From: an uncultured Clostridia bacterium
Lineage (GTDB): Bacteria; Bacillota; Clostridia; Oscillospirales; Ruminococcaceae
Length of the DNA stretch: 64,000 bases
Assembly: GCA_947166275.1 (NCBI GenBank)
Contig: CAMVDP010000005.1
Span: forward strand, 842-64,841
Direction: 5' to 3'
Below the pieces are notes generated by a model, which did not search any database, was not told where the DNA came from, and saw nothing but the letters and a program-made list of their open reading frames with translations. The position numbers and the translations under genes are program-made. This document shows, one piece after another, positions 855 to 22,555 of the stretch. Position 1 is the first letter of the stretch. Each line of letters starts with the position of its first letter.

Positions 855-909
855 TTCCTGTATCTCCTTTTTGCATATCATATAATACATATCGATTTAA
901 TATGCTTAC

Positions 910-938
910 ATTATAGCACGTTATTCCGAGCTTGTCAA
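910..938 (-). promoter_or_regulatory. Sigma-A promoter of moaD-moeB
   Basis: TTGACA-N17-TATAAT with TG extension. Confidence 0.8.
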
Positions 939-1057
939 TAGGTTTTTGGAAAATCTTTTTCAAAAAAAGCGCTGCGTTATTTTCGGGCATATAATTATGA
1001 GATCTTCTATATCGTAAATGCGAACAGTGTTTTTGGTGTGCTCATTATGTATATACA

Positions 1058-1093
1058 GAAAAAGAAGCGGTATCGGTAATTCGATACCACTTC
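1058..1093 (-). terminator. Rho-independent terminator
   Basis: gaagtggtatcg/cgataccgcttc stem followed by U-run on minus strand. Confidence 0.6.
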
Positions 1094-1146
1094 GTTACCC
1101 GCTGTTTGCCTTAACCATAGTGTTTGTAAAAACTTCTATAGTAGTA

Positions 1147-1383
1147 TTACCCTTTGAATTTTAACCATTTGTTTTTGCACAATACACCGTTTTTATAGTA
1201 TCTCCTGCCTTTGCTCGTTTTTGCCCAGCCGGAATACTTTCCGATCTGTTCGCCGCTGTCGGAATATTTGTATGTAACTCCGTCTACGGTTTTCAGCTTG
1301 TCCGCAAACGCTGTCGCACTTGTGCAGGACATAGCCGCAATAGCAGAAAGCGCTGCTGCCGTAAGTCTGATTGATCTTTTCAT
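1147..1383 (-). CDS. Small secreted protein with cell-wall-binding-like repeat, possibly truncated
   Basis: Signal peptide (…TAFA), GW…RYY…KW motifs, RBS AAGGAAG. Confidence 0.6.
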   Translation of the reverse strand: MKRSIRLTAAALSAIAAMSCTSATAFADKLKTVDGVTYKYSDSGEQIGKYSGWAKTSKGRRYYKNGVLCKNKWLKFKG

Positions 1384-1433
1384 TGTAATTTACTTCCTTT
1401 CCTAATAGATCATCGTTTTATATTTTTGTCGGT

Positions 1434-4250: not shown

Positions 4251-4807
4251 ATCGCGATACCCTCCTTTTCAAGATGTTCGCGCAGCTTCTCACGCATACG
4301 CACAAGAGTCTTACGTACTCTGTCTTCCGAGGTATTGAGGTCTCCCGCGATCTCGGCATAGGTGCTGCAATAAAAGTACCGCCGGATAAACATGATCTGC
4401 TTGTCGCGCGGCTGCTTTGACAGAAATTTCTCGACTGCGTTCAGCACGGCTTTCCTGTCAACTTCACTCTCAACGCTTTCCTTCGTCGGCAAACAGAGCG
4501 CTATTTCATCAAAATCCACGGACTTATACCCGCGACCGTACTTTATCCGATTCGCGGCTTTATACATATCAAGCGCCATATTACGCGCGATAGTAACAAC
4601 AAAAGCACCGAGCTTTGCCGGTTTCTTCGGCGGGATCGCGTCCCACACCTTCATATAAGTATCGTTCGTACATTCCTCGCTGTCCTCATGGCTTCCGAGA
4701 ATGTTGTACGCAACGCTTCTGCACGCGCCGCCGTACTTTTTGTCGGTCTCCGTGATAGCATCCTCGGAGCGGTCAAAGTACAGCTTTATAATACTGTCGT
4801 CGTTCAT
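4247..4807 (-). CDS. ECF RNA polymerase sigma factor
   Basis: 186 aa; DSEECTNDTYMKVW region 2, STYAEIAGDL region-4 HTH. Confidence 0.92.
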   Translation of the reverse strand: MNDDSIIKLYFDRSEDAITETDKKYGGACRSVAYNILGSHEDSEECTNDTYMKVWDAIPPKKPAKLGAFVVTIARNMALDMYKAANRIKYGRGYKSVDFDEIALCLPTKESVESEVDRKAVLNAVEKFLSKQPRDKQIMFIRRYFYCSTYAEIAGDLNTSEDRVRKTLVRMREKLREHLEKEGIAI

Positions 4808-4922
4808 TTCTTCCTCCCGCTTTTTGATCTCTATATATAAAGACGATTTTTTTCACGCAAAGCGGACACTTATTTAAAAATTTTTCAGAAATATTATAAC
4901 GCAATTTTCTGAAAAACGCAAC

Positions 4923-4950
4923 AAACGCACAAGCCGAAGCCTGTGCGTTT
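4923..4950. terminator. Hairpin ending the HSP90-DUF4132 operon
   Basis: aaacgcaca-N10-tgtgcgttt. Confidence 0.6.
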
Positions 4951-5336
4951 TACTGCACATTTTTCCAGTCCTTCGGAACATCAAGCCAAAAAGCAGGAGT
5001 AAAGCAAGGTCGGTAATCCGGAGATGCTTTCCAACCGTGTTCAAGGTATTCAAGCATCTCTGAATTATCAGAAAATTCCTTTACATTGCCCATTTCGATC
5101 TCGCTGTACCAGCCGTCATCATACCGGCTTTTCGGCCCGCCTATTCCGCAGGGCTCATGATTATCTGTCACATGACACCACCACGTAAAGCCAGATATCC
5201 TAACAGAACGTTTTGTAAGCTCCCGGATAAAAGCCGGAGCGTTTTCCATTGGACAGATACAGTCTATATATCCATAACCGACTGGCTGAACATGGAATAT
5301 TTCAAGGAGCATATCAAGTTCTTGTTTTGATATCAT
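4950..5336 (-). CDS. Hypothetical protein (Cys/His/Trp-rich)
   Basis: 128 aa with RBS, co-directional in operon. Confidence 0.7.
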   Translation of the reverse strand: MISKQELDMLLEIFHVQPVGYGYIDCICPMENAPAFIRELTKRSVRISGFTWWCHVTDNHEPCGIGGPKSRYDDGWYSEIEMGNVKEFSDNSEMLEYLEHGWKASPDYRPCFTPAFWLDVPKDWKNVQ

Positions 5337-5349
5337 TATCGTTCCTTCC

Positions 5350-5739
5350 TTAACACATCAATATCGAGATCACAAACTTACATGAAAAGAATATAGAAAC
5401 TCCAAAAAACAATATAGAAAAAATGATATCCGGAAGTATTGACCTACAACCGATAGTTGTCATTTTCCCGTATTGTCGGACTTTTACCTCGTCATTCCTG
5501 TTTCCAAATAATGAAATATTGAAAATCTTCTTATGTTCAAATGACATTTCATCAGTCCAATAAACTGTTTTTTGAAACGAACCAGGTCCGTTGAACACTT
5601 TATCGAGAATATATTCTTTTCCTTTTATCAGAGCCAACTTCTGTCGTATCGCTCTGACAAGAAATGCTATCCCACAAGGTGTAGAAATGATATTACAGAA
5701 TATCAACGCGATTATAATTGCTTTTACTCTGTCATCCAT
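5350..5739 (-). CDS. Hypothetical 2-TM membrane protein
   Basis: 129 aa, hydrophobic termini, AT-rich. Confidence 0.65.
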   Translation of the reverse strand: MDDRVKAIIIALIFCNIISTPCGIAFLVRAIRQKLALIKGKEYILDKVFNGPGSFQKTVYWTDEMSFEHKKIFNISLFGNRNDEVKVRQYGKMTTIGCRSILPDIIFSILFFGVSIFFSCKFVISILMC

Positions 5740-5754
5740 ATTATCAAATAAACC

Positions 5755-6138
5755 CTATTCAAAATCATATTTATCGGTATTTGCGCAGATATGAAACGTT
5801 CCCGCTTGTATTACAAAATAATCTCCCTTGTAATCAGCACTTGGGTGACAATCTGTAATGTAAACCTCAATATCGCCTATCTTTGTTTCAATAAATCCGG
5901 TGCTGTCTCCGGCGATAAGGTACTGTACACCGTAATAATCCATATATCCGCCAGCCGGTTCAGAAGGAAGAAACACCTCGAACGGCTTTTCTATATCTAC
6001 CCCTAAAGTCATCAGACAGTCTGATACTTCGGGATATGCGGTCTTTATCTCGTCCGCAAGATTCTGACAATATACACATTGACACAGATCCTCACGTTTG
6101 ATATTGTCGTAATACTTTTTGGTTTCTTCGATATTCAT
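5755..6138 (-). CDS. Hypothetical protein with CxCxxC motif
   Basis: 127 aa, CQCVYC, RBS AGGAG. Confidence 0.7.
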   Translation of the reverse strand: MNIEETKKYYDNIKREDLCQCVYCQNLADEIKTAYPEVSDCLMTLGVDIEKPFEVFLPSEPAGGYMDYYGVQYLIAGDSTGFIETKIGDIEVYITDCHPSADYKGDYFVIQAGTFHICANTDKYDFE

Positions 6139-6150
6139 TATCTGCTCCTG

Positions 6151-9100
6151 TCAAGATCTTATCTGCTCCAGTATGGACGGATCCTTTATCTTCCCGTCCT
6201 CCGCGAGAAACAGTATCTTCGTGATTATCTCTGCGGTCTTCGGGTCATCGTCCGCGAACGGCAGGAACAGCTTTCCCCTGTGCTGCGAATGGACAGGCAG
6301 TATGTTTATCATTGATCCACCGAGCTTATGCACTACACCGCTGCCGAGATGTACGGAATAATCCCCGTATTTGCCCTTGATATGAGCGTGGGACTTCTCT
6401 ATCATCACATTTTTCAGCTTGAACAGCGGCAGCGTGAACTGCACCAGCGCCGCGCGCATCTCGATAGTAGAATGGCTTGTTTCGGGGTCAACTCCACCCG
6501 CGTGAGCAACGCTTACAGCGAGATCGACATCCCGCATGACCTCGGAGAAGATGATATCGGGAATGTCCTTTATCTTCATGGGCTTGCCGGTCTTGCGGTC
6601 ATAGAACGCCACCACTCCAGCGTCGGAGCCTCGATATCCGCGGGCGTGAACCAGTCTGCCATTGCGTATATCGTCGCCACGATGTTTTCCTTGTAATAGA
6701 CTTTCTGCAAGCCGTTCTCGATGTCGGCTACCCAGCGGCGCGTTTTCAGGCACGCAACAGTCTTTGTGGGCTGTATCTGATTGCCGGAATACCGACGGGT
6801 ATCGCACATTTCAAGTTCTTCATCAGTCTTGACATAAAGCTCTCTGAACACCTGTTTAAACGGCTGCACCAATCCCTTGTCGAACAGATAACGCTGATAC
6901 CACTCCCAATGCCCGTCAAAATACATATCATACGGGTGCGCGACTGTCACGAGACGAGTTTTCTTCATTTCTTCAGCACATGAACCACAGCTCATAAAAC
7001 CGTTATCCTTATTGATAAACCCGAGCGTGCCTCCGTCCTGCTCCTTGAACACAAGGTCGCGTATGATAGGCTCGACCACCGGATTTTTCCGCAGCTCGTG
7101 AAGCTCCCCGACCGTGAACTCCGTGCAGTCCTCCATAGCCTGCTCAAACATCAGGCGCGTGCGGCGGTACTGCTCGGTAAGCTTCTTTTTCGTCTCCGTC
7201 AGGCGAATTATATGCTCGTTCTTTTTCAGCTTCGCGGGTATGGATTTGAGTGCCTTTCCGTCCTTTGTTACTGCTATTTCGGTCTTTCCGTGTTCATCGA
7301 CCACAAGCTTCACCGTCACGCCTTCGATAGTCTTGTCCTTGAACAGGTCGCGGCTGTCGTCAATGAGCTTTGTCTCCATTCGCAGGGTCAGCCGCGTTAC
7401 GTCAGCGTAACCCGCGTTAGTTGCGAGATTCTGCATAGCGATACCCACGGCGGCTTTCTCGCTTGCGCTGCGCTGTGAGCCGAACTTTTTGCTTTCCTTT
7501 AGGAATTGCTGCAAATATAGGTAACGACGGCATATATCGTCCTCGCCTTTAAGCGGTATCAGCGCATACGCCATGAGCAGGTCTTTATTGCGCTTGTCGG
7601 CAACGGTCTTTTCGGTTTCATCGACGGTGAACTTGCCGAGAACGGCGTCTGCGTACTTACGGGCGCGGGAATGCTTTGTGCCGTCGGTGATATACTTCGC
7701 GGCATCGTAAATAGCATCGAACCTCTTGCTTCCGAGCGTGTCATAGGCGCTTCTGAACCATTCCACATCGAACGCGCCGAGCTGCAAGTCCTCCGGTGTG
7801 ATAGGAGTATATTTCGCAATGACAGCCTTGCGCTTGTCGTCGAAATACTCGTTCATGTGCGCCATGAAGTAGTAGCAGCCGGACACATAGCCGTCCCAGC
7901 CGAGATACTGCGCGACAATGTCGATCCACTCCGGAGCATACAGCGAAGCTTCGATAAGGCGCTTTTCAGTGATATCCGTGCCTTTCAGAAGCTTGCGGAG
8001 CTTGTCTGTGTTATCACCCTCGTTCGGAACGCAGACACAGAGCAAGCGGGATAACGCGCTCTTCTTGCTTTCCGTCGAGCGGTAATACGCAGTGTTACGT
8101 TCGAGAGTCTCTTTTCCGAGAGCGGAAAGTATGGCGACGAAATTATCCACTCCGTAAATGCGGTTCACAGAACTGATGTACTGCGAATACTTAGTCTTAC
8201 TGTCGCCGCGTTTCAGCTCGACACTCAATACTTCGCCTATAATACTATCATACACATCGGAAATTAACTGTAGAAAACTCTCGTCTGTCTCTTTCTCCAG
8301 TTCTCTCAGAATATTGCTGTGCCGCCAGTTGTAACGTTCACGCGATGAAACAGCCGTATCCTTTTCACGAACAGCCGAGATAGCCGAGGTAACAAACATC
8401 AAGGTGTCTGACAAATTATCCCATCTTAACATCAAACAATACATCTGTTCATACGTAATGATACCGCGGTAAGCCGCAAGCATCGTGTATTTTGCGGACG
8501 GCAGGACATTGTGACAATGATTCCGTACATAGGAAAAACCGCTGTCCTTGCTTCTCTCTATATCTGCCCGTACGAATTTAAGATAAAGCCCATAAATAAG
8601 GGGAAATGTAACAGACATGGTATTTTCGTCACTTCTGTCGAGATGAAAGATAAAATTCCTTATGGCTACATCTTCCGTAAGTGTAGTGGTCTCCTCATAA
8701 TTGTAGCCTTTATACCTGAAGATCAGCTTGTCAGCAGGAACAAATAAAGTAATATACAAATAAATCGATATTGCCATTTCCTGAAGTTCCTGCTTACGCA
8801 GATATTCGTTAAGCAGCATATACAGGATGATATGAGCGTGATTTATGTACTCAAAGCCCGGTTGTTCGCAAATACCGTTTCCGAACAGTTCAATGAGTGT
8901 GCTGCCCGCATATTTTAAATAATCATCGGAGCGGCGGTTTCTTTCGGACTTTATATACATTCGCAGAAGCCGTTCCGGTTCGGGTATGTTTTCGTCTATC
9001 CAAGCTTTCCAAAGGTCACGCAGTGGTAATACTCTGCGGTTATCCTCTACGGAATTAAACTCGCCACATTCACACCCGACGATGTTAGTTTCGCCTCTGC

Positions 9101-11345
9101 TGTCAATAAACTCGTCCTTTTCATGCAGCTTTATAAAATCACAGAGCGCTTTCAGGTCTTTCTCCGTCTGCTTGCATGAATTGCAAGCTCCCGGTTTCAG
9201 CTTGCTAAATAATCCTTTCCGATAATTATCGGGGTACACCTTCGCGCCGACTTCCGACTCCGGGAAATACCGCATGAACGTATCAACACATTCACGGGTA
9301 AGCTCGTTATCCGGTATCTCAGGGATATACTCGTCCTCGTCGGTGTAGAGCGGCTTCGCGGGCGCGTCAGACTTCACGCTGTCGGAGGGTGAAATACTGT
9401 CGAGCAGTATCTTCTCCTTTGTGGTCGGTGAGGTCATGGACTTGGTGAGTTCTCTGCACCGTGCGAACAGTTCGCTGCGTTTTTCGTCCTTCGACAGGTT
9501 CATTATCATATCGAGGGCGGCGGTGCGCTTTTCCTCCTTTTTGTCGGAGATAAGCCGGGAAACGCTTCCGTACAGCGCGTTGTCGTCCTGCTTCATCAGC
9601 AGCTTTATCAGGTTTTCACGCGCATCGGCAGCCTTGTATTTCAGAAGTTCTTCCATTTGCAGATAGTTTTCCGGCGGAAGCTTGCATGACTGCACGATCT
9701 CACAGGCTTGCTCTCGGGTGTATTCAGCCTTGTCACACAATGCGGAGACAAGCGTGCGGCGCTGAACGTCCGTTTCCGGCTGTATCAAAAGCAGCTTTAT
9801 AAGCCTGCTCCTTTCATATGGGTCGGCATCTGTGAGCATTTCACATACCTCGTCAATAAGCTCGTTCGAGTGCAGTGCGCTTGCGATGAATCCCATTCTT
9901 ACAACTGCATACCCGCGCTCGACAAAGTTTGAGAACCATGGAAACACAAACGGCGAGAACTCCTGCTTTCTGCCCTTAATATTGCCGCAGATAGTTTTCA
10001 GAATATCATAGTATTTCCGTGCTTCCGCTTCGTCCTTGAAATACGTTTCAAGCTTGCAGTAATGGCGTTTTGTGTAGTCGGACTGACGGGTCTGCGGGTT
10101 AAGTCCGGACTGGCGATAGTCTCCGAGAACACTTACGATCTCGTTGCTGACATTATTCATGAAAAAGCGCAGATACCCCGCCATAAGTTCGATATCATCG
10201 TAATGCTCCGCAACGACCTGCGCCCCGACCTCGTGGGAGAGAGCGCTGTTGTTGAGCAAATTTACCGAGTAAGACGCGGTGAGAAGCTGATGCCGCGTAC
10301 CGTTTTTTGAGATCTCGCGTATCTTCACCACAAGGTCGCGGCTCTCGTAAAATCCCAGTGACCACAGCCCGATGTGAATTTTCATCGAGTCCTCGGAGTT
10401 CAGATATTCTTCCCGCTTTGCCGGGTCAGTAAGACAATCGGTTATCAGAGCTATCGACTTGTCGCTTATACGTTCGAGCTTTACGGTCTCCTCCTCCGCA
10501 AATCCGAGCCATGTGCCTACCGCGCGCTTGACCGATGAAAAGCGGATAAAGTTGTTCTCATTGATAACGCCGAGCAGATACAGGAACGCTTCGGGAGTAC
10601 CCTCGTCCATTGTCTCGCATATTGACTGGCGCAGTCCCTCCTGCAAACGTGCGGCACACAGCAGTCGTCCGAGAAGCTCGTGCAGAGCGTGGTTGTGGCT
10701 CTTGACAATTGCGCGGAACATCAGACGATCAATTGCTATATCGTTTTCGCCGTTAATGATGTCGGTGAGCAGGGTTATCAGACGCTCATTCCCGAAGTCT
10801 ATCTCGGCGGCGGCAAGATCGTCAAAGCAGTAAGGAAGGCTTGACACGCCGAGCTTATATCCGAGCTCCTCTTCGGTCAGCTTGTCTTCAAGATAATCAC
10901 AGATATCGTCGGGTACGGAGTCCCATTCCTTAAAGTCATGGATAGCATTGATAACACAGTTTGCGACGATCATCGGATCGCGGGAACGCAGAGAACGCCG
11001 CTGCCAACCGGTCGCGTAAATACGCTCGTGAACGTGGTCTATCGTGTATAAGAAATGCTTCTTGTGATTCGGGTTTATGTATCCGTTGAACAGCTCCGGA
11101 GCATGCTTTTCGATAAACTCCGAGGGCAGGTTCTTGTCGTTTTCCGCAAGATAAGCGATCATCTTTTTGCAAAGTGCGCCGCCTACCCGGAATTCATAGA
11201 AATAGTTGCAGTGATCTCCGATCAGCTTCTTTACATCATCGGGGAGCATTTTGAAACATTCCTGATGATACGCGGTACGCTTTTCTCTGTACACATCTCC
11301 GAGTTTCTTTAACCTTGCCTTTTCCTCTGCCGAATACTGCTTCAT
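6151..11345 (-). pseudogene. Giant DUF4132-domain protein (~1730 aa if restored), split by a 1-nt frameshift at ~6612
   Basis: ORF 6576..11363 (likely start 11345, RBS GGAGG) ends APTLEW-W; other frame continues VAFYDRKTGK…FSEVMRDVDLAVSVAH; QPFKQVFRELY and VAHP motifs recalled from DUF4132. Confidence 0.8.
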
Positions 11346-11356
11346 TGCTGTCCTCC

Positions 11357-11776
11357 TTACCACATTCTTCCCGCGAGCATAACGAGCCGTATGAACGTAA
11401 CCTCGCTGCCCTCGCTTATGCTCACCGTGCTGTCGATCTCTCCCGCTTCATCTTCACCTATGAATACCCGGAACAAGCCGTCCTCATACGCCTGATATGC
11501 GTCCGCGACCGCCTTTTCCTCATCAGGAAGCTTTTCGCCGTAGTTTATGCCGAAAGCTATCTTGCCTATCTCGCTCATATCGGCTATTTGCTCCGATGTT
11601 AGCGGGTCCGGCGTATCGCTTTTTTCAGCCCGTTCAACGTACCGGGAAACGCAGGTGCGAACACATTCGCGTATCAGCTCGCGCACGGTTTTGGGACTGC
11701 ACGACAACGGAAAATCAACTCCCGTGATCTTGTTTTTCTTTTTGCCGAGCTGCTTGATGTTTACTTTGATGTTCAT
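11357..11776 (-). CDS. Hypothetical protein with ubiquitin/MoaD-like C-terminal half
   Basis: 139 aa; FRVFIGEDE…IDSTVSISEGSEVTFIRLVMLAGRMW; ATGA-coupled to upstream gene. Confidence 0.75.
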   Translation of the reverse strand: MNIKVNIKQLGKKKNKITGVDFPLSCSPKTVRELIRECVRTCVSRYVERAEKSDTPDPLTSEQIADMSEIGKIAFGINYGEKLPDEEKAVADAYQAYEDGLFRVFIGEDEAGEIDSTVSISEGSEVTFIRLVMLAGRMW

Positions 11777-14046
11777 TTGTTGTCCTCCCGAAGAAGCAGA
11801 TAAAGATCATCGGCGTAATAAATATCGTTATCATCCATAAAAATCCCGAAGTAATACACATCGCCGGGAATTACCTCAACCTTATCACCTATGATGAACT
11901 GCGTCACATTCTTGTCCTTGTTCTCAACGACACCTGTTTTACCGTCCTTTTCGAGCGCAACATGAAGCCATGTCTGTTGTTCATCTCCGTCCTCGTCGGT
12001 GTATATGACATCTATTCCCGCTCTCATTCCGCAGTCGTGCGTTTTGAAGTATTCCAGCGCGTACGGGAAAAGGCTGCGGCTCCTTATACGCTCCAGATCC
12101 ATTGATTTATAGTTCTGTCGCGGGGTCAGTTTATCCATGTCCTCGTCGGAAATCTTGTTTATCGCAATTCCTTCACTGTTCTTTGTCAGATAAATGACCG
12201 GCTCGGCAAATATCCTGTCACTGTCGGAGAATTTTCTCTGCTTCCATGTGAACCGCATATACCCTTGATCGTCATACAGTATCCCACTGTTCATGGACGT
12301 GCCCTCGTCGGGCAGCGGCGAGAACGATAACGCTTCGACCAGCTTTCTGAGCAGCCATATCGTCTTTGAGTATTCCTCTCTTGTGACACCTATGACGGCA
12401 AGCTCACGGGAGCCGAAAAGGCTGAGTCCCAACGACAGTACATCGACCGTTCCGGGTACCGCTTCGGAATTAAAAGTCCTGAGATCCAGACATTCCACGG
12501 CAACAGGCGGTGCACCGCTTATCACGACATATTTCAGCCATTCTGCCGGATATAAGACGCTGCCGATGATATTGCATAAAACGGGGCAGCCGTCGGTATT
12601 CATAGCGTCCGCGAGCACAGTCATTCTGCGGATATCCTCGTACCTGTCGGTATGTATATTGTCGGATATCAGTACAAGCATTTTTGTATAGTCGCCGATA
12701 TTGTCAAGCGTATGCTCCGGCAGATCGTAATAACAGTGGTATTCGGAAATGTCGGGTGCATCGGTACAGACCGCGCCGTACATAAGTCGCGTGCCGTCCT
12801 TGTCGGTTGCGGGAATATACGCGCTGTTTCCGCTCTCATCGGCATTCGCGCTGACATTATCAAACCCAAGCTTTTCCGTCAATACTTTCGCGATTTCATC
12901 AAACGCGGGAAGCTCATTTCTGAACAGAACGCCGATAGAAAATCGTTCCGGCGTTACCGTTCCGTGCAGCGGAAGTTCCAGCTTGCTTTCCGGCGCGTCG
13001 GGAAATTCAAAGCTCAGGATATCCGAAAACATCGTGTTGACGTTGCGCTTGTCGAACTTTCTTGCGAGATCGTCGGCAGCCTTGTAAAAATGCTCTTTCA
13101 GCTTCGCGGTTTCGTAATTTCTGTCAGGGTTATAAAGCTCGAAATCCGATGAAAGCTTTGAGTGCATCTCATTCACTCCCTGCTTTTCGAGAGCGCACAT
13201 AAGCCTGTACGCCGCCGCCGCGAACCAGAATTTTCCCGCGGGGTTTTTCGCTGTGCTGTACATTCCCGCAGCCTCGCAGAATATGTCATAAGCGCGGTGA
13301 ATGTCGGTCAGTGTCTTGACGAAGAGCACCCTTCCGAGCCGCAGCAAACACGCCGTCCATTCTTCCTTGTCGGTGAACCTTAGCATCATGTCGGCGTAGT
13401 AATCAGCTTCTTCATAATATCCGTTGACCGCAAGAAAATATGCGATATCCGCGAACAGTTCATTCGGAAATTCGCTGATATCATGCGTTTGCAGCAGCTT
13501 GTTGAGCCGGTCGAGTCCGGCCTTGATCTGCCCCGTGTACATATCCCTGTGTATGCGCGAGCTTTCTGCGTTGATGTCGTCCTCTGTTTTTACGGTTTCG
13601 TAAAGCTTCTCGAAATCAAGCATATACTCGGCTTCTTTTGCAGTTTCGATGAACTCATAGGCTACCGACTTGCGCAGGTGATACTGCGTCATATCATAGC
13701 CGTACTTTTTCAGAAATTCCCCGAAACGTTCGATATAGCTGTCTATCTGTTCGCGCGTTACCTGCCAGTATTTCGAGCAGTCCTCGATCATCCACTCGAA
13801 CGGATATAAAGCGCAGTCGGGATCGACAACGTCCGGGTTTTCCTCATACAGCTTCAAAAACTCCGGGAACATCAGTATCATCTGATATTTGTCGCCATAA
13901 AATGTCGATTCCTGCATATAGTCGTGCCGCAGTGTGAGCATTTCACGGATGTTCTTTTCATTGTCCGCTTCGGCGATGCACTTTTTCAGATAAGCAAGCC
14001 TTTCCTCGCCGCGCGCAAGTGTGCAAAGATAATTATAGTCAAACAT
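11773..14046 (-). CDS. TPR-like helical protein with DUF4026-like C-terminus, paralog 2
   Basis: 757 aa; aligns end to end with 14060..16303 (YLKKCIAEADNEKNI, GLS.FGSREL, LPDEG..MNSGI). Confidence 0.8.
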   Translation of the reverse strand: MFDYNYLCTLARGEERLAYLKKCIAEADNEKNIREMLTLRHDYMQESTFYGDKYQMILMFPEFLKLYEENPDVVDPDCALYPFEWMIEDCSKYWQVTREQIDSYIERFGEFLKKYGYDMTQYHLRKSVAYEFIETAKEAEYMLDFEKLYETVKTEDDINAESSRIHRDMYTGQIKAGLDRLNKLLQTHDISEFPNELFADIAYFLAVNGYYEEADYYADMMLRFTDKEEWTACLLRLGRVLFVKTLTDIHRAYDIFCEAAGMYSTAKNPAGKFWFAAAAYRLMCALEKQGVNEMHSKLSSDFELYNPDRNYETAKLKEHFYKAADDLARKFDKRNVNTMFSDILSFEFPDAPESKLELPLHGTVTPERFSIGVLFRNELPAFDEIAKVLTEKLGFDNVSANADESGNSAYIPATDKDGTRLMYGAVCTDAPDISEYHCYYDLPEHTLDNIGDYTKMLVLISDNIHTDRYEDIRRMTVLADAMNTDGCPVLCNIIGSVLYPAEWLKYVVISGAPPVAVECLDLRTFNSEAVPGTVDVLSLGLSLFGSRELAVIGVTREEYSKTIWLLRKLVEALSFSPLPDEGTSMNSGILYDDQGYMRFTWKQRKFSDSDRIFAEPVIYLTKNSEGIAINKISDEDMDKLTPRQNYKSMDLERIRSRSLFPYALEYFKTHDCGMRAGIDVIYTDEDGDEQQTWLHVALEKDGKTGVVENKDKNVTQFIIGDKVEVIPGDVYYFGIFMDDNDIYYADDLYLLLREDNK

Positions 14047-14059
14047 TTTTGTTTACCTC

Positions 14060-16303
14060 TCAGAATAAAGTCCAAAGATCGTCAGCTTCGTATTTTTCCC
14101 CGTTTTCTTCTATGCAGAACCAATAAACATCATCGGGCTCGATGTAAACAACATCACCGTCTTTCGGAGAAGCGTAGTGCGAATCTGTAACTATACCCGT
14201 TTCTCCGCCGTTCTGAACGTTCAGATCGACATATATCTGTATCCCGCTGCTGTCGATATATTTCACGGCGGCAGTAAGCTTACAGCCGTGCGTTTTGAAA
14301 TATTCCAGCGCATACGGATAAAGGTTCTTTGCGCGCCGATCGGCAAATTCCGCCGCTCGTCTGTGCATTCTCGGAACAGCGTTCTCTTTCAGCTCATCCG
14401 CAAGCTCGGTCACGGTCTTTCCTTTTTTGTGACGTGATGTAAGCAGCAGAAGCGGCTCCGCATAGACCGTACCGTCGTCTGTCGTGACCGATCTCCATGT
14501 AAGGCGGATAAACGAATCGTTCTTATAGACTATCCCGCTGTTCATGGTAACGCCCTCGTCCGGAAGTGACGAGAACGACACAGCTTCAGCAAGCTTAAGC
14601 ATAAAGCTCCAATAAAACCATTTTTCATCATCATCGGGAACATCGCGTATGATAAGCTCGCGCGAGCCGAAGTATGACAGCCCGTCGGTTATGATATCCG
14701 TGCTGTCGGGAGCGGTGAGTCCGTGGACAAACGAGCATTTTATCATATTCTCTGACTGAGGCGGCGTGTCGCTCAGAGCACAGTATTTCAGCCAGTCCGA
14801 CCAATGCCATTTGTTGTTCGGTAAGCTGAAAAAGATCCTTGCATCGTCGGTATTCAGCGCGTCCGCGGTACGAAAAAGCAGCCGCATATCCTCAAATCTG
14901 TCGAGGTGAGTGTTGTCGGATATGACTATCAGCAGTGTCTTATACTCGTCGATATTCCCGAACATACCGCGCGCGTATTGGTTGGGGTGGGTCTCGCGCA
15001 TATCGGGAGCGGCAGTAAACACGGCGCGGAATTTGTACTTCCTGTTTCTGTCGTCGTACATGGTCATATACGCCATTCCGTTTTCGTCAAGGTCGCAGTT
15101 CACGTCCATGCAGTTTGCGATATTTTTGATAATACCGGATATTTCATCGAGCGAGGGCGCCGCTTCACGCGAACGGAAAAGCACGCCTACCCCGCCCGGC
15201 TCGGGTGTATGGCTGCCATGAACGGGAAGCTCAATATCCGCGCTTTCGGCAGGCTCGGGAAACTCAAACGCGAGCTCATCGGAAAACATATTGTTACCGT
15301 TTCTGTCATCGAATTTTTTAGCTATGTCCTTGGCAGTATTGTAAAAATGCTCTTTGAGCGCAGAAACACTATACTTTCTGTCCGCGCTGAAAAGCTCGAA
15401 ATCCGGTGACAGCTTCGGCTGCACTTCATCTATCCCGTGCTTTTCAAAAGCGGCAAACAAGCGATACGCGGCAGCGGCAAACCCGAATCTGAGCGACGGG
15501 GTCTTCAGCGTGCTGTATCTTCCCGCGTTCTCACAGAACAGGTCAAACGCGCAGTTCGGAGCGGTAACGGTCTTGACGTTTATGACATACGCTATCTCGC
15601 GCATGAACGCGACTTCGTTCCCCTTTATCATAGGCAGCATAAGGTCGGCGTAGTGGTCGGCTTCATTGTACATTCCGCGTTTTGCGAACTCATACGCGAA
15701 CGCGCCGTATGTCACCTGCGGCACCTCGGTGCAGGTCATTTCCTTTGCCTGCATCTCGTTGAGCAGCTTTACGGCAGTTGCCGCCGAGCCGTACCGCATC
15801 TGCATTATCGCGCGCTGGCTCGCTTCACACGCGGCGCAGTCGCTCAGATCGGACCGCTTGTACCTGTCGAACCGTTCATAAGCATCTATGGCGGTCTTCC
15901 GGTCTATATACCGGTACACCAAAGTTTTTTTCAGATAGTAGGTGCGCATGGTATATCCGTACTTCCCGATATACTTCTCAAACCGCTCGAAGTAGCGCTC
16001 TATCTGCTCCCGAGACACCTGATAATAGTCAACGCACTCCTCGATAATCCACTTGAACGCGATCATGAAATCCGACGGGCTGATAACATCCGGATTGTCC
16101 TCGAACAGCTTCATAAACTCGGGAAATATGACCATTGCCTTGAACGGATCGTCGTAGAATGTTGCCTGTGCGATGTACTCGCCGCGCAGTTCCAGCATAT
16201 CCTTTATGTTCTTTTCGTTGTCCGCTTCGGCAATGCACTTTTTCAGATATATAAGGCTTTCCTCGCCGTCGGAAAGTGTACGGTAATATTCTTTGTCAAA
16301 CAT
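14060..16303 (-). CDS. TPR-like helical protein with SDCxxCE motif and DUF4026-like C-terminus, paralog 1
   Basis: 747 aa; LSDCAACE, TCTEVP; starts 1 nt after HSP90 stop. Confidence 0.8.
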   Translation of the reverse strand: MFDKEYYRTLSDGEESLIYLKKCIAEADNEKNIKDMLELRGEYIAQATFYDDPFKAMVIFPEFMKLFEDNPDVISPSDFMIAFKWIIEECVDYYQVSREQIERYFERFEKYIGKYGYTMRTYYLKKTLVYRYIDRKTAIDAYERFDRYKRSDLSDCAACEASQRAIMQMRYGSAATAVKLLNEMQAKEMTCTEVPQVTYGAFAYEFAKRGMYNEADHYADLMLPMIKGNEVAFMREIAYVINVKTVTAPNCAFDLFCENAGRYSTLKTPSLRFGFAAAAYRLFAAFEKHGIDEVQPKLSPDFELFSADRKYSVSALKEHFYNTAKDIAKKFDDRNGNNMFSDELAFEFPEPAESADIELPVHGSHTPEPGGVGVLFRSREAAPSLDEISGIIKNIANCMDVNCDLDENGMAYMTMYDDRNRKYKFRAVFTAAPDMRETHPNQYARGMFGNIDEYKTLLIVISDNTHLDRFEDMRLLFRTADALNTDDARIFFSLPNNKWHWSDWLKYCALSDTPPQSENMIKCSFVHGLTAPDSTDIITDGLSYFGSRELIIRDVPDDDEKWFYWSFMLKLAEAVSFSSLPDEGVTMNSGIVYKNDSFIRLTWRSVTTDDGTVYAEPLLLLTSRHKKGKTVTELADELKENAVPRMHRRAAEFADRRAKNLYPYALEYFKTHGCKLTAAVKYIDSSGIQIYVDLNVQNGGETGIVTDSHYASPKDGDVVYIEPDDVYWFCIEENGEKYEADDLWTLF

Positions 16304-16304
16304 T

Positions 16305-18059
16305 TCAGATCCCCCATTCTATCAGCTTTATCAGATTTTCGTTCATTATGTTCATCTCGCGCGAATATACGGGATATCCGCCCGCGATAAGTGACTGTAC
16401 ATAAAGGATAAGCGCAAAGGTGCGGAGCTTTTCATCGTCGTTTACCTCGGAAAGCCTGTTTATCAGGTCGTTGGAGCAGTTCAGATACAGCACTGTCTTC
16501 GCATCCTCCGAGATCTCCTCGCCGAAAGCTTCGAGCATATCCGCGAACATAGCGTCGCTGTGTTCCTTTGAGCGCTCGATGTCGCGTTTGAGCTGCGCGT
16601 CGGCGTTTGAGCTGTACAGACACGCAAGCTGTTCCGCAAAGCTTTTCATCACTATACGGCAGTCATACTTTTCAAGCGATTTTGAAAACATCTTCATTAG
16701 CTTCGTGTAGCGTTCCTCGTGAAAGCACTCGTCAAGGCTGTCCTCGATGATGTTCTCGCGAAGTGGCTGAGCGTCGATGATATCACGTTTTGACGCGAAC
16801 AACAGCAGATTCTTGATATGCACATAGCCTGCGTTCACGAGCAATATATCCTGCTCCGCGAATATCGGGCGTATCTGTCGGAAAATATCGATGTCGGGGG
16901 TATAAAAAACGGTCTTGTCATAATCGATAAGCTGTTCTCCCGTCAATACACCGAGACTTGTTTCAAACTCGAAATACGGCATGAATATGTCGAATATCCG
17001 CTCGTTCTCGCAGGCTATGGATTTGAGCGCCGTGCCGTGCAGCTCACCTATCTTTTCGAGCAGCCCCCTGTCTCTGAATGACAGCCGTTCGAGGTACTCC
17101 GCGATGCAGTCGGATATCTCCTCCTTCGCGTCCTCAAGAAGCTTGTCCTTGTAGAAATCCTCGCGTGAGGCAGTCGGGCGAAGCTTGTTCGTATTTATTA
17201 TGCAGCGCACGAAAAACGCCCACTCCGGGAGCAGTGCAGAACCGTTCTCCGTGAGCAGCAGATTTTTGAGATATATCCGATGCCGTTTATCTCCGCCCGC
17301 TGCCGAGACCGTGTACGGCAATATGTACGCTGCGCCGCTGAAAAGCCCGGTCGGGGATTCGAGCGGTATGTAGTCTATGAAATCGGAATCCGCGCCGAAT
17401 ACCGCCCTGCCTGCTTCGAGCATAGCTTTGCGGGTGTTATCGCCGCCTATCGACCTGAATATGACATTTGCCTGCACACGCTCTTTACCTTCTTCCGAAA
17501 CATATATCGGATACGGCAGAGGAAGCGCGTAGTACCTTGCCTTGTCGGCGAGAAAGTCCGCGTCAAAGTATTTCTCATACCCGGGTTTGCAGCTGAATGC
17601 TATCTGCGTTCCGACCGGAATATCGGCATCAGTGCTCATTACCGAATATCTTCCGTCCGCGAAGCCGTGCCACTCAACAGCATATTTCGGTGCTTTCAGA
17701 GACCTTGAGCGCAGTATTATCTCGTCGGTTACTATAAAGCAGGATAACAGACCTATGCCGAAACGCCCGATATAGCTCGTGTCACCGCGTTTTGAGGACT
17801 GTCCTATGACAGACACGAACTTATGTATCTCTTCCTCGGTCAGCCCGATTCCGTTGTCGATGAAGGTTATGGTCTTGTTCTTCTTCACGGTCACAGATAT
17901 CTCGCCTTTTGTTCCGTTTTCCTTCTCCGCCCTCATGCTTATTGCGTCCGCGCCGTTCTGGATAAGCTCACGCAGGAATACATCGGGACTGCTGTATAAA
18001 TGCTCGGACAGTATCGAGATCATTCCGCCGAGATCAACGCTGAATTGATAATCGTTCAT
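16305..18059 (-). CDS. HSP90-family (HtpG-like) protein, non-canonical paralog
   Basis: LYSSPDVFLRELIQNGADA, DNGIGL, IGRFGIG, LRPTASRE GHKL/HSP90 motifs. Confidence 0.92.
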   Translation of the reverse strand: MNDYQFSVDLGGMISILSEHLYSSPDVFLRELIQNGADAISMRAEKENGTKGEISVTVKKNKTITFIDNGIGLTEEEIHKFVSVIGQSSKRGDTSYIGRFGIGLLSCFIVTDEIILRSRSLKAPKYAVEWHGFADGRYSVMSTDADIPVGTQIAFSCKPGYEKYFDADFLADKARYYALPLPYPIYVSEEGKERVQANVIFRSIGGDNTRKAMLEAGRAVFGADSDFIDYIPLESPTGLFSGAAYILPYTVSAAGGDKRHRIYLKNLLLTENGSALLPEWAFFVRCIINTNKLRPTASREDFYKDKLLEDAKEEISDCIAEYLERLSFRDRGLLEKIGELHGTALKSIACENERIFDIFMPYFEFETSLGVLTGEQLIDYDKTVFYTPDIDIFRQIRPIFAEQDILLVNAGYVHIKNLLLFASKRDIIDAQPLRENIIEDSLDECFHEERYTKLMKMFSKSLEKYDCRIVMKSFAEQLACLYSSNADAQLKRDIERSKEHSDAMFADMLEAFGEEISEDAKTVLYLNCSNDLINRLSEVNDDEKLRTFALILYVQSLIAGGYPVYSREMNIMNENLIKLIEWGI

Positions 18060-18110
18060 CTGATTTCCTTTCGGGTTATCATATTTGTGGATAAAGCGCC
18101 CACAAATCCT

Positions 18111-18139
18111 ATTATATCACATATTTCCCGTATTTACAA
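18111..18139 (-). promoter_or_regulatory. Sigma-A promoter of HSP90 operon
   Basis: TTGTAA-N17-TATAAT with TG; 5'UTR hairpin atttgtgg/ccacaaat at 18083-18107. Confidence 0.65.
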
Positions 18140-18165
18140 CACCGTTCGTCCGTAATATATAGTAC

Positions 18166-18200
18166 AAGCTTCGTACTGGGCAGAACGCAGCACGAAGCTT
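18166..18200. terminator. Hairpin after M50-like pair
   Basis: aagcttcgt…acgaagctt inverted repeat. Confidence 0.5.
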
Positions 18201-18232
18201 CATTATATCAACATTTTTACAAATCTTCGTCT

Positions 18233-19273
18233 TCACGCGCCTTCACTTTTCAATATCTCATCAAGCTCATTTATAAGTCCCGGTTCAAGCCTGTTCTCGG
18301 TCTCATACGCAATTCTTCTTGCCTTGTCGAGATAGTATCTGGCTTTATTAACATCGTGCAGCACAGCATAGGAATAATACGCGAGAGCACGCTTTGACCC
18401 CGCACCTGTATCGGTCGCAAGCGCAGTTCCCGCCTTATCGTAAAACTTCCGGGCATATTCCTCGTCAGTCTCAAGCCATGAATAATAGTAGATAAGCAAG
18501 CCGTAGGAGTTTATACAGTTCGCCAAAAAGTCCTCGGAACGAAGCATATCGGTCATTTTATGCATCGGCTCGGAAAGCTTTTGCTCATCGCCGCGCATTA
18601 TCAGAGACACGCTGTAATAATACAAGTAAGCGAGAGTATCGACCGCGGAAGGCTCGTCCGGAAACTCAAGCTCGTTTAGCGGCGGAAGATTCATGCTTGT
18701 GATATCTGCGCCGTTTTTCACAGCAGTCTTTATCTTCTGAACATACCCACCGAGCGTATCCTTCGGGCTTCCGGCATGGGATATGAGGGCTATCACATCT
18801 CCTATAACCGCAGACCACGAGATAATGCAGAAGAAAACCACGAAGATAGCCCAGTCGGTGTCCGGATTAAAGGAAAGCTCATCCGGCGGCGCATCGGATA
18901 ATGCCGCAGACCACGCAGGCAGCGACAGTATTGTCACAATCGCCGACAAAACCGCTTTCGCTATCAATCTGCAAATAATAAAATGCGTATGCGACGCTGT
19001 AACGTCCGTGCTTCCTTTCTCCGTGACCGTGTATCTCACAAACGGCGTGTACGGTTGGTCGCCTTTTTGCCAGCGCCCGTTTACACGCTTGAATGAAAAG
19101 AATTTTACCGTGATCTTATCACATTCCAGCCCGAACCTCGGCAGCACAAACAGTAGAAACAATATGTGCAGCCCCTCAAATACTATGACCCCCAGCAGAA
19201 CGCCGAGAAGAAGATAAGGGAATTTCCCGTTTATTATTGAATATATCAGACCTCTTGCGCCTCTGTAGCTCAT
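18233..19273 (-). CDS. Membrane protein, peptidase-M50-like with TPR-like C-terminus (degenerate site FExxH)
   Basis: Likely start MSYRG at 19273 (RBS GGGGG); 3 TMs; paralog of 19284..20279. Confidence 0.7.
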   Translation of the reverse strand: MSYRGARGLIYSIINGKFPYLLLGVLLGVIVFEGLHILFLLFVLPRFGLECDKITVKFFSFKRVNGRWQKGDQPYTPFVRYTVTEKGSTDVTASHTHFIICRLIAKAVLSAIVTILSLPAWSAALSDAPPDELSFNPDTDWAIFVVFFCIISWSAVIGDVIALISHAGSPKDTLGGYVQKIKTAVKNGADITSMNLPPLNELEFPDEPSAVDTLAYLYYYSVSLIMRGDEQKLSEPMHKMTDMLRSEDFLANCINSYGLLIYYYSWLETDEEYARKFYDKAGTALATDTGAGSKRALAYYSYAVLHDVNKARYYLDKARRIAYETENRLEPGLINELDEILKSEGA

Positions 19274-19283
19274 AATTTCCCCC

Positions 19284-20279
19284 TTAACATCCCTCGTTTT
19301 TAAGTATCTCGTCAAGCTCGCTGACAAGCCTGCGTTCAAGCTCTCTTTCCATTCCCGGGATACTGAAAACATCTACTAACGACTTAGCCTGATCCGTAAA
19401 GAATCGGGCTTTCTCTCTGTCACCCTCGACGAAGTACGCATAATAAGCGAGAACTCGTTTTGCGTTCGCGTCGGGATCGTCCGCAAGCACCGACCGCATC
19501 CTGTTCATAAAATGGACGGCGAGCTCGCGGTTGGGTTCTATTCTCGAATAGAAGTAGATAAGATCGTAGTAGTTCCCTGTATCCGACATAATATAGGATT
19601 TATACTTCAGAGAAGATGTCATATCATAAGCCGGCTCTCTGAGATCGTTGTATCTCCCGACCCAAAGCAGGTACATAAAGTACCATCTGTAATAGCGAAG
19701 CTTTGCTGCCGAGTCATAATGCTTGTACGGAAGCTGATTTAAAGGCAGCATCATTGTATCGTCAAGGGGCTGACCGCTCCGCATACGTTTTTGCAGATAT
19801 GTACAGTACCCCAGAAGGCTTTTCCGCGAGATTATATGAATGTACAGGAATGCCAGCAGGGAGCCTGCGCTGTACAGGATATTGACTATAAACACATCCT
19901 CCGCGACCCTGTTCCAGCGTACAGTTCCGGGGATATACCCGCTTACGGGTATACTCCTAGAAACAAAGAAGATAATGACCGTAAGGGCTATCTGCACAAG
20001 AACGAGTATCAGGTCTATGAGAATTGATCTGACGTCCGCGTTCTCGGGTATCGGCCGCGTGGTATCAACCACACGACTCGACTGACAGATTATCGAGAAC
20101 TTACTTTTTGTTTTTCTCCATTTTCCGTTCTCCTTGATGAACGTCAGCCCGAAAAACGAGATACGGTCACATACCAGACCGAACAAAGGTGTTATTATGA
20201 GCGCAGCCAGAATCTGTGTCGCCATGAACAGGACATAAGCTATCCATATTGCAAAAAAGCAAACGATCGTTGTAAGCAT
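19284..20279 (-). CDS. Membrane protein, peptidase-M50-like with TPR-like C-terminus (no HExxH)
   Basis: 331 aa; FGL.C..I.F..F….NG.W, KR.LAYY.Y shared with neighbour. Confidence 0.75.
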   Translation of the reverse strand: MLTTIVCFFAIWIAYVLFMATQILAALIITPLFGLVCDRISFFGLTFIKENGKWRKTKSKFSIICQSSRVVDTTRPIPENADVRSILIDLILVLVQIALTVIIFFVSRSIPVSGYIPGTVRWNRVAEDVFIVNILYSAGSLLAFLYIHIISRKSLLGYCTYLQKRMRSGQPLDDTMMLPLNQLPYKHYDSAAKLRYYRWYFMYLLWVGRYNDLREPAYDMTSSLKYKSYIMSDTGNYYDLIYFYSRIEPNRELAVHFMNRMRSVLADDPDANAKRVLAYYAYFVEGDREKARFFTDQAKSLVDVFSIPGMERELERRLVSELDEILKNEGC

Positions 20280-22536: not shown

Positions 22537-22555
22537 TATGTAGGAGGTGATAAAT

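Follow-up and report, generated by a model that had tools for sequence, protein, structure and literature searches.

An Hsp90 paralog and its linked, predicted TPR-fold partners beside a likely separate Ubl–DUF4132 gene pair in an uncultured Clostridia bacterium

Results

An eight-gene array on the minus strand, positions 18059 to 4950 of the window (the whole 64,000-nucleotide stretch of uncultured Clostridia DNA analysed here), is best read as a local junction between two independent modules. In this reading, to which we assign a probability of roughly one half, module 1 comprises a second Hsp90 ATPase and two partner proteins (hsp90, tprA, tprB) that are predicted to clamp its client helix and likely serve as adaptors. 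Module 2 pairs a ubiquitin-like (Ubl) protein with a giant DUF4132 protein.

Layout and transcription signals of the gene array

The eight genes are co-directional, and the recomputed intergenic gaps of 1, 13, −4, 11, 12, 15 and 13 nt agree with the spacing of about −4 to 15 nt originally described. These figures assume that the giant's gene starts at the ATG at 11345, which is preceded by an AGGAGG site. A consensus scan also recovered the proposed sigma-A promoter as a promoter-like site with an extended −10 (TTGTAA-17-TG-TATAAT, 18139–18111, minus strand; 10/12 plus TG). Taken alone this predicted site is weak, since the scan gave 33 such sites where shuffled sequence gave 21.4 ± 5.1. Its location is consistent with a promoter, 51 nt 5' of the hsp90 ATG and directly after a hairpin at 18165–18205 (−20.9 kcal/mol). 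Other strains carry extra DNA at 18074–18086, between the promoter-like site and hsp90. At the far end, the proposed terminal hairpin (4923–4950, minus strand) was confirmed with 12 pairs and is intrinsic-terminator-like, and the 41-nt stretch enclosing it folds at −18.8 kcal/mol. GC3 is ~0.6 in the five large genes and resembles that of the host.

The tprB–ubl junction was considered as a possible assembly artefact, and this was ruled out: a contig of run X11 spans it, and another locus, L134, has the same junction. In the RNA data, a contig of one run spans the ubl–giant junction (11185–11449), another contig lies in hsp90 and none spans tprB–ubl. DNA carry-over is possible in these data, and the contigs therefore say nothing about co-transcription.

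The array ends in three ORFs of variable cargo. They encode a 127-aa protein of no family (5755–6138, minus strand; GC3 0.38), a 129-aa protein with hydrophobic ends, also of no family (5350–5739, minus strand; GC3 0.34), and a 128-aa member of a small uncharacterised family (4950–5336, minus strand; GC3 0.41), none of whose 35 homologs has a Pfam family. Some X7 contigs carry a different sequence 3' of the giant gene. Run X2 has a joint, 5337–5762, that skips the middle ORF, and X3 has loose ends at the same places.

A second Hsp90 that retains the ATP site

The first gene (16305–18059, minus strand) encodes a 584-aa Hsp90 paralog of the PRK14083 family. It scores 552.5 bits against NF010683 (PRK14083), above the curated cut-off of 455, whereas its 158 bits against the canonical HtpG model NF003555 fall short of the cut-off of 371. 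The array had been predicted to carry a dedicated HSP90, and the protein is indeed a second paralog: the genome's canonical, housekeeping htpG lies on contig C13 behind the assembly's only perfect CIRCE, and the two are 23% identical. No CIRCE was found on the contig carrying the array, in agreement with its reported absence upstream. The proposed tree comparison gave the same picture, in that the paralog groups with actinobacterial and planctomycete paralogs and far from its own genome's htpG (quick tree, long branch).

Residues E31, N35, D68, G70, G72, G98, G101, G103 and R299 are invariant in 53 of 53 alignment rows. Alignment to 2iop assigns them putative roles as the GHKL catalytic Glu, the Asn, Asp and glycine motifs, and the middle-domain Arg, and judged by this alignment the paralog keeps every ATP-site residue. 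Its C-terminus reads ...LIEWGI, and the MEEVD tail is absent.

The partner: a constant domain with variable tails

Partner A (747 aa; 14060–16303, minus strand; model pLDDT 89.4) is composed of an N-domain (residues ~1–350) with three cysteines, C156, C159 and C191, followed by a DUF4026_N-DUF4026_C-DUF2314 (Imm34) tail. Partner B (757 aa; 11773–14046, minus strand) is paralogous to A (40% identity) and has kept none of the three cysteines. The loss is also seen in the L018 ortholog of partner B; the cluster is conserved in 53–54 of 63 partner rows. Residues 1–349 of the partner A model superimpose on MalT domain III (Z 20.9, rmsd 4.6, 299 aligned) and on APC5 (Z 21.0, rmsd 5.1, 317 aligned), and the nearest folds include the ligand-sensing bacterial TPR domains of MalT (domain III), NprR, Rap and AimR. 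The N-domain is predicted to be a TPR fold, a superhelix of helical hairpins, so the earlier label of twin TPR-like proteins stands.

Genomic linkage of the two components is nearly constant. Of 85 Hsp90-paralog loci from four phyla, 84 have a co-directional partner gene at most 1.5 kb downstream of hsp90. The loci draw on a search that kept the best 80 of 581 matches and is rich in Streptomyces and Ruminococcus (locus L023, a duplicate of L015, was left out). Listeria and Paenibacillus share this layout. No conserved third gene was found after the partners among 143 candidate ORFs, the calls being poor in high-GC loci, nor in Paenibacillus and other loci.

The 350-residue domain is constant, and the tail is missing, made of TPR repeats, or made of DUF4026 plus Imm34. 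At least 2,028 clusters were obtained; of the best 150, 16 were tail-less, 23 had the window's tail type and 105 fell into one other cluster. Most actinobacterial tails scanned match TPR families (19 of 24 tails scanned). The window partners' own tails are below Pfam thresholds and gave no DUF2314 match; tail families were assigned through homologs, with DUF2314 above cut-off in two (L013 and P0416) and weak in three more of the 11 tail-bearing proteins scanned. The DUF4026–Imm34 tail has no sequence match in the PDB, and none of the tails scanned holds a DNA-binding, enzyme, nuclease or other effector domain.

A predicted clamp on the client-binding helix

Complex modeling of the HSP90 with a partner, suggested in the original prediction, gave a score of 0.80, compared to 0.01 for the best control. 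Of 157 solved complexes, 116 reached the mark used, as did 2 of 215 mismatched pairs; these pass rates are only rough because the analysis used its own alignments. The model holds one copy of each protein, not the Hsp90 dimer, and passing the mark expresses only the model's own confidence. Contacts agree to at least 96% between runs, with a pLDDT of 90 or more for the partner. The first three helical hairpins of the partner are predicted to grip Hsp90 residues 486–515 and nearby middle-domain loops, with no contact past residue 569 and no part for a MEEVD tail. Candidate contact residues are I494, S497, F505, M508, L509 and F512 in Hsp90 and M57, V58, P61 and E62 in the partner. In the alignment with E. 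coli HtpG the gripped stretch corresponds to residues ~546–559 and contains an insertion of ~12 residues immediately ahead of them. In the available text of a review (PMC10720920), the client-interacting region of HtpG includes M546, M550, L553 and F554. The partner is thereby predicted to clamp the client-binding helix of Hsp90. Partner B is identical to A at 26 of 39 predicted interface residues, compared to 160 of 350 overall. Against the model, conservation in the partner is no higher in the predicted interface columns than elsewhere (0.41 versus 0.42).

The partners likely act as substrate adaptors that would restrict the Hsp90 paralog to a narrow job. The tail would capture a target protein and keep it at Hsp90 for ATP-driven remodelling, and the C156/C159/C191 cluster may be a metal or redox switch that partner B has lost. 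The many tail-less partners count against this reading.

A contact at the client helix suits a client as well as an adaptor. The TPR protein may itself be the client, a metastable sensor that a private Hsp90 holds primed until ligand or oxidation releases it, with the TPR domain, a cysteine switch and a variable sensing tail as its parts. Eukaryotic Hsp90 holds receptors primed in like manner. The predicted site, the ligand-sensing TPR domains among the closest folds, the one-to-one linkage of the hsp90 and partner genes and the retained cysteines are all consistent with such a role. However, the N-domain is predicted with confidence to be folded, no output domain (DNA-binding or enzyme) occurs in the tails scanned, and tail-less partners are common; the client role is rather unlikely.

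Candidate targets and a possible toxin-immunity link

If the partners are adaptors, two findings point to foreign proteins, polymorphic toxins entering the cell for instance, as their likely targets in Bacillota: the Imm34 fusion seen here, and a SUKH neighbor in Listeria, where the gene order is hsp90, partner, partner, SUKH. The basis of this link is one fusion clade and one Listeria locus. DUF2314 is the Imm34 of polyimmunity loci (Imm34, Imm-SuFu-2, SUKH; Zhang et al. 2012, PMC3482391), and in the available text of that paper Imm34 has no assigned cognate toxin. A Tudor-like tether model has been proposed for a DUF2314 protein (PMC8466066). Module 1 resembles polyimmunity loci in the DUF2314 domain that ends the tail in homologs and in the SUKH gene 3' of Listeria module 1, and differs in that an array of recognised immunity genes is missing from the window. 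The word "Hsp90" is absent from the 300,000 characters of PMC3482391 examined.

A wider version of the adaptor reading is more doubtful. Module 1 could represent an ancient bacterial Hsp90–adaptor machine with exchangeable tails, or SUKH proteins in trans, that in gut and food-borne Bacillota performs ATP-driven capture and unfolding of polymorphic toxins. Target choice would then lie with the tail, whether TPR repeats, DUF4026–Imm34 or a SUKH protein in trans, and incoming toxins would be unfolded, going beyond purely stoichiometric blocking.

Distribution, mobility and anti-phage defence

The Hsp90 paralog is present in 6 of 200 genomes of the family; neither it nor the partner gene was found in 398 other genomes of the class. 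It occurs in 53 of 81 Micromonosporaceae genomes, and in Listeria module 1 sits among housekeeping genes. Corynebacterium glutamicum, included as a control, has PRK14083 too. A tRNA-Pro, an integrase and an excisionase-like gene lie 4.5–6 kb from the locus. A second att copy was not found, and the locus is therefore not placed inside a tRNA-Pro integrase element. A mobile cassette is likewise unsupported, the partner domain matching 1 phage record and 6 plasmid records, mostly large replicons.

The original prediction had raised a conflict or anti-phage machine. PADLOC 2.0 (library dated 2023) gave only generic ATPase-domain matches, namely TmtA GHKL-domain matches on Hsp90 spanning ~120 of 1,300–1,800 model positions, and no match for the other 10 window proteins or 7 intact homologs. 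Module 1 or the whole locus could still be imagined as a defence system built on an Hsp90-type ATPase, as in Tiamat- or sacsin-like systems, and the TmtA matches, the patchy spread and the nearby integrase genes would fit. Yet the matches are short and confined to Hsp90, the tails scanned carry no nuclease or other effector domain, module 1 is widespread in Micromonosporaceae and housekeeping in its Listeria setting, GC3 is host-like and the second att copy is missing. A defence role is improbable.

The Ubl protein and the DUF4132 giant

Module 2 begins with a 139-aa ubiquitin-fold (beta-grasp) protein with a helical insertion (11357–11776, minus strand; model pLDDT 75.4). The best fold match of the model is middling (Z 6.7, rmsd 3.4, 89 aligned), and the top rows of the search are nearly all ubiquitin, MoaD and ThiS folds, so that the Ubl-like label, too, is upheld by a predicted beta-grasp fold. 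The protein ends LAGRMW, without the C-terminal Gly-Gly of a conjugatable Ubl or sulfur carrier. Among its close homologs, 118 of 120 end G-x-x-W/F/L/Y without a G-G pair and 0 of 120 end Gly-Gly; trimming after the invariant G136 may occur. The adjoining gene (6151–11345, minus strand) encodes a DUF5724-DUF4132-DUF7737 giant (PF18991, PF13569 and PF24879 across two frames) of ~1,731 aa if intact, interrupted by a frameshift near 6611. Intact homologs are mostly ~1,680–1,770 aa, and the break is private to the strain or assembly, as one more base is present near 6611 in contigs of all 4 runs compared, which come from 4 studies. Ubl and giant form a conserved pair, being adjacent in 64 of 68 loci.

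Two contexts for the pair were considered and set aside. The LexA box has the motif GAAC-N4-GTTC; upstream of 57 module 2 genes there were 0 exact and 4 one-mismatch boxes, compared to 3.5 in shuffles, and with no box enrichment SOS control of module 2 in the window's clade was rejected. A polyimmunity context is unsupported: the 84 flanking proteins scanned (79 of 115 non-redundant neighbors plus 5 picked by eye) matched no named Imm or SUKH family at E ≤ 1e-8. DUF1963 and DUF2262 were matched once each, and one weak SUKH_6 match (E 8e-4) appeared among 15 proteins picked by eye.

Deinococcus radiodurans has a related pair, DR_A0165–DR_A0166. Its 134-aa Ubl is homologous to the window Ubl (99.1% probability), and its gene lies directly before that of a 1,626-aa DUF4132 giant, downstream of trxC, a pair order that the window shares. 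The D. radiodurans giant is 37% identical over 708 aa to an intact relative of the window giant (L119). The two differ in that the D. radiodurans Ubl ends Gly-Gly whereas the window Ubl ends G-R-M-W, and an Hsp90 paralog was not found in the 13-kb D. radiodurans stretch. According to the available text of bioRxiv 2021.07.07.451423, the operon is up on DdrO depletion and mitomycin C induces DRA0166; in that of PMC9650054, RDR-regulon membership is disputed and DR_A0165 is tied to negative control of antioxidant activity. Module 2 is likely a separate, likely stress-related two-gene unit. In this lineage it lies downstream of module 1, whose promoter-like site likely drives its transcription as well.

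DUF4132 had also been said to sit with MoxR and VWA genes. That link is real, but it belongs to another DUF4132 subfamily, that of the AAA_5 (MoxR)-DUF5682-VWA-DUF4132 operons, named yeh in E. coli. Such operons exist in family members and have the DUF4132 domain in common with the window, but their DUF4132 protein is ~1,120 aa long and matches neither DUF5724 nor DUF7737, both of which the window giant has. AAA_5, DUF5682 and VWA genes are absent from the array, and DUF5682 was not found in the window's genome (81% complete).

Two modules rather than one system

Reciprocal neighborhood counts separate the modules. Module 2 lies within 10 kb of the Hsp90 paralog in 2 of 85 Hsp90 loci, the other 83 being without it (76 with at least 5.5 kb downstream), and module 1 is present at 0 of 43 Ubl loci having at least 2.5 kb upstream. 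Most sampled genomes carry one module without the other. PRK14083 occurs in 0 of 9 sampled genomes with the Ubl–giant pair, and window-type Ubl in 0 of 5 Hsp90-paralog genomes tested. In one genome (G599), the pair is present at 80% DNA identity and the partner domain is absent. L134 retains tprB–ubl and has lost the giant, and L018 retains hsp90–tprA–tprB with module 2 absent. Both occur together in 31 Micromonosporaceae genomes; G636, which was chosen because of the link, is the only one where they lie at most 20 kb apart.

Some findings point the other way. In Micromonospora lupini (L093), the Hsp90 operon faces a GG-ending Ubl and a DUF4132-DUF7737 gene head-to-head; in L052, a DUF4132 gene follows ~6 kb downstream. 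The Ubl and DUF profiles derive from clostridial sequences and may overlook distant copies, though these two were caught. Any DUF4132 is found in 4 of 6 Hsp90-paralog genomes compared to 14 of 194 others (p = 6e-4), and the association in Micromonosporaceae is 30 of 52 versus 7 of 28 (p = 0.009); in both, kin are not independent, and the association fades with genome size considered (p = 0.11).

A single conserved 13-kb system was therefore rejected on the neighborhood counts and genome samples: the HSP90–TPR and Ubl–DUF4132 pairs rarely co-occur, an outcome that the original prediction of one operon had itself named as counting against it. Despite tight gene packing behind a single promoter-like site, the idea of one machine in which the giant is matured or gated by Hsp90 and its adaptors, the Ubl serving as cofactor, is very unlikely and largely refuted by co-occurrence.

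Comparison with known Hsp90 systems

The Hsp90 paralog probably belongs to HTPG group C (or B) of Chen, Zhong and Monteiro 2006 (PMC1525184) and Press et al. 2013 (PMC3708813). In the available portions of these papers, the paralog lineages are named without a partner or function, and hsp90B and hsp90C are set aside in the co-evolution study of Press et al. As with other PRK14083/HTPG paralogs, the window copy is a second one beside canonical htpG, a situation reported, in the text available, for Streptomyces coelicolor and Bacteroides fragilis. Bacterial Hsp90 has been described as lacking dedicated co-chaperones (PMC4428384, 2014), and the literature searched, mostly open-access main texts, holds no description of the Hsp90–partner pair; such architectures could be listed in the supplements of PMC3482391 and PMC7159879. 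The partner is likely a dedicated helper of the paralog; no such helper is known for the well-studied bacterial Hsp90. The 84/85 linkage and the predicted interface residues on both proteins make the existence of such a co-chaperone and the role of the paralog testable, and the Imm34 fusion and SUKH neighbor hint at a target class. Recognizing the local junction keeps these 13 kb from being catalogued as one system.

The best solved relatives of the paralog are HtpG and TRAP1 (2iop, E 8e-58). It shares with E. coli HtpG and mitochondrial TRAP1 the three-domain layout and the ATP-site residues, and differs from them in its fixed partner gene, its extended amphipathic helix and the absence of a CIRCE. 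Another parallel is eukaryotic Hsp90 with Hop, FKBP51/52 and PP5, where, as predicted here, a TPR-fold protein with an extra functional domain docks on Hsp90. The sequence relationship of the partners to these co-chaperones is limited to generic TPR/PPR repeats. Eukaryotic TPR co-chaperones are recruited through the C-terminal MEEVD motif (PMC12610889, available text), whereas the window Hsp90 is without MEEVD and its predicted site is the middle/C-terminal client helix. A site so unlike the eukaryotic MEEVD clamp would be an independent solution to the docking of a TPR-fold protein on Hsp90.

An Hsp90 paralog linked to TPR-fold partners

With 552.5 bits against a cut-off of 455, the window Hsp90 is a member of NF010683/PRK14083; it scores below the threshold of the canonical HtpG model. 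The canonical htpG (628 aa, with a perfect CIRCE) lies on contig C13 of the same assembly and is 23% identical to the window Hsp90. Nine ATP-site residues are invariant in all 53 aligned paralogs. Passages of PMC1525184 already describe deep lineages of second Hsp90 copies, and hsp90B/C were excluded from co-evolution analysis according to part of PMC3708813.

Among 85 Hsp90 loci (the best 80 of 581 and six from a 200-genome family sample, minus one duplicate), 84 have a gene for the partner N-domain downstream of hsp90, within 1.5 kb and on the same strand; the one exception, L060, comes with a flank of just 2.8 kb. More than one such gene is present in nine. Paenibacillus carries hsp90 and one partner only, while in Listeria monocytogenes hsp90 is followed by two tail-less partners and these by a SUKH gene. 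In the latter (locus L243, 2142-6769), the paralog, both partners and the SUKH/SMI1-KNR4 gene form one run adjoining the ferritin gene fri. No description of the Hsp90–partner pair was found in the literature searched.

Partners A and B share a 350-residue N-domain, predicted to be a TPR superhelix (pLDDT 89.4), whose model resembles MalT domain III (Z 20.9, rmsd 4.6, 299 aligned). The family comprises at least 2,028 clusters at E <= 1e-30. Tails of the best 150 clusters fall into 16 with none, 23 of the window type, 105 of another common cluster and 6 singletons, and TPR families were matched by 19 of 24 other-type tails scanned. As seen in homologs, the window type is DUF4026_N + DUF4026_C + DUF2314, with DUF4026_N in 11 of 18 aligned members and DUF2314 over the cut-off in two homolog tails and weak in three more; the window partners' own tails are below threshold for these families. 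DUF2314 is Imm34, which is known from polyimmunity loci and from fusions with Imm-SuFu-2 and Imm33; the relevant part of PMC3482391 assigns it no toxin. Cysteines 156, 159 and 191 are conserved in 53–54 of 63 aligned partner rows, and partner B lacks all three, as does its ortholog in locus L018.

Predicted docking and proposed mechanism

The predicted complex of Hsp90 with the N-domain scored 0.80 (three runs), compared to 0.01 for the best control; in calibration, which is rough here, 116 of 157 solved complexes reached the score mark, as did 2 of 215 mismatched pairs. Contacts agreed by at least 96% between runs, with partner pLDDT of at least 90. Solved homologs of the partner were limited to generic repeats, none close, and recall of a like complex by the model is therefore unlikely. 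The tightest predicted contacts place partner residues 54-65 and 93-96 against Hsp90 493-512, which aligns to E. coli HtpG ~546-559 and is preceded by an insertion. HtpG M546, M550, L553 and F554 are listed within a client-interacting region in a section of the review PMC10720920. Partner B retains 26 of 39 predicted interface residues versus 160 of 350 overall, but family-wide conservation of the interface columns is no higher than that of other columns (0.41 vs 0.42), which counts against the predicted contact.

We favor, with a probability of about 0.5, a role for the partners as adaptors of the Hsp90 paralog, counting gene linkage, modular tails and intact ATP-site residues as its established steps. 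The N-domain would dock on the Hsp90 client helix, as the model predicts, and the tail may capture a target protein, with toxins as candidate targets. The main alternative, that the partner is itself a client or sensor of Hsp90, is possible and distinctly less probable. The original prediction stands in part; an anti-phage function is doubtful, and a single 13-kb machine fares slightly worse.

One gene run, two modules

The host genome is 1.88 Mb and 81% complete, and the window sits on its contig C5. Taxon labels of close homologs are Ruminococcaceae/Oscillospiraceae, and the runs that match best come from metagenomes of gut, bovine gut and sheep gut. All eight expected co-directional, minus-strand ORFs were found, spaced by -4 to 15 nt; they are flanked by a promoter-like site with a hairpin upstream of it and by the terminal hairpin, which confirms the original observation. 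The DUF4132 gene is broken across two frames near 6611 in this assembly; contigs from 4/4 runs have one extra base there, so the gene normally encodes ~1,731 aa. GC3 is 0.34–0.41 in the last three ORFs versus 0.60–0.63 in the first five, and one of the three is skipped in run X2. These last three ORFs are cargo.

At 18074-18086, 625 bases of different sequence separate the promoter-like site from hsp90 in run X1, and runs X4 and X11 have loose contig ends there; an extra small gene is therefore likely at this point in other strains. Just upstream of the promoter (18233-20279) lie two tandem paralogs of 379 and 331 aa that share ~29% identity; their N-terminal halves are hydrophobic, and neither matches Pfam, NCBIfam or PADLOC. 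In run X11, a joint leaves out 18202-19274. In locus L137 (1-425), the 5' end of the 331-aa gene (98.7% identical to the window's) continues in frame as a partner-like C-terminus, two genes before Ubl; this fusion reflects either a rearrangement in that strain or chimeric assembly of the contig.

An obligate 13-kb system is unsupported. Module 2 (Ubl and giant) lies within the fetched flanks of 2/85 Hsp90 loci (L093, head-to-head; L052, ~6 kb off), and module 1 (Hsp90 and partners) is upstream of Ubl in 0/43 loci with at least 2.5 kb upstream. A partner fragment near Ubl occurs only in L134 and L137, close relatives with shorter flanks; the giant is lost in L134, and module 2 is absent from L018. 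PRK14083 was found in 0/9 sampled genomes having the Ubl–giant pair, and a window-type Ubl in 0/5 PRK14083 genomes tested. Any-type DUF4132 is present in 4/6 PRK14083 genomes versus 14/194 others, and in 30/52 versus 7/28 in a second set, which speaks for a link. The second-set association drops to p = 0.11 once genome size enters, its only genome with Hsp90 paralog and DUF4132 within 20 kb was picked for that link, and at least two of the four first-set cases are AAA_5-DUF5682-VWA operons on other contigs. In L093 (7019-9860; Micromonospora lupini), a GG-ending Ubl and an 818-aa DUF4132-DUF7737 gene stand head-to-head with the hsp90–partner operon. L093 is a second, independent junction of the modules, and none of this type is repeated in 30 other family genomes holding both. 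A loose role in conflict or stress common to both modules is possible.

Elsewhere in the window, an integration site (22547-24155) holds an excisionase-like HTH_17 gene (22547-22726), a tyrosine integrase gene (22797-23954) and a minus-strand tRNA-Pro (24080-24155); a search of the assembly revealed no second copy of att. The stretch 1434-4807 encodes an ECF sigma factor (186 aa) and, after it, an anti-sigma-like membrane protein of 938 aa that carries five Big_14 Ig-like domains; some genus relatives have several copies of similar sigma genes.

The Ubl–giant pair

The 139-aa Ubl has a predicted beta-grasp fold and ends G-R-M-W; a Gly-Gly end occurs in 0/120 of its close homologs. We infer a non-covalent complex of Ubl and giant. 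Among the best 80 of 315 metagenome loci, a DUF5724 gene directly follows Ubl in 64 of 68 having at least 600 bp downstream; of the other four, L134 is a true loss and three have short flanks. The pair is present in 6/6 strong class-level matches.

In locus L237 (genome G388, 581-11835), the pair is embedded in a series of co-directional genes, most without an assigned family; DUF1963 is among them. By eye the series resembles an immunity cluster, but no named Imm family was matched. On contig C5 (220-1731, to window position 890), a 503-aa ORF has a MoaD/ThiS-like start on visual inspection of the first 80 residues and is possibly a Ubl-E1 fusion. Some Micromonosporaceae show a strong expansion of DUF4132, with 20 matches in G651 and seven each in G657, G674 and G686.

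A LexA box upstream of module 2 was found in 0/57 cases in the window's clade. In D. radiodurans, the Ubl–giant operon is up-regulated when DdrO is depleted, according to part of bioRxiv 2021.07.07.451423, although according to part of PMC9650054 it lacks an RDR motif. This D. radiodurans region encodes a homologous Ubl–giant pair, but there the Ubl ends GG, unlike that of the window.
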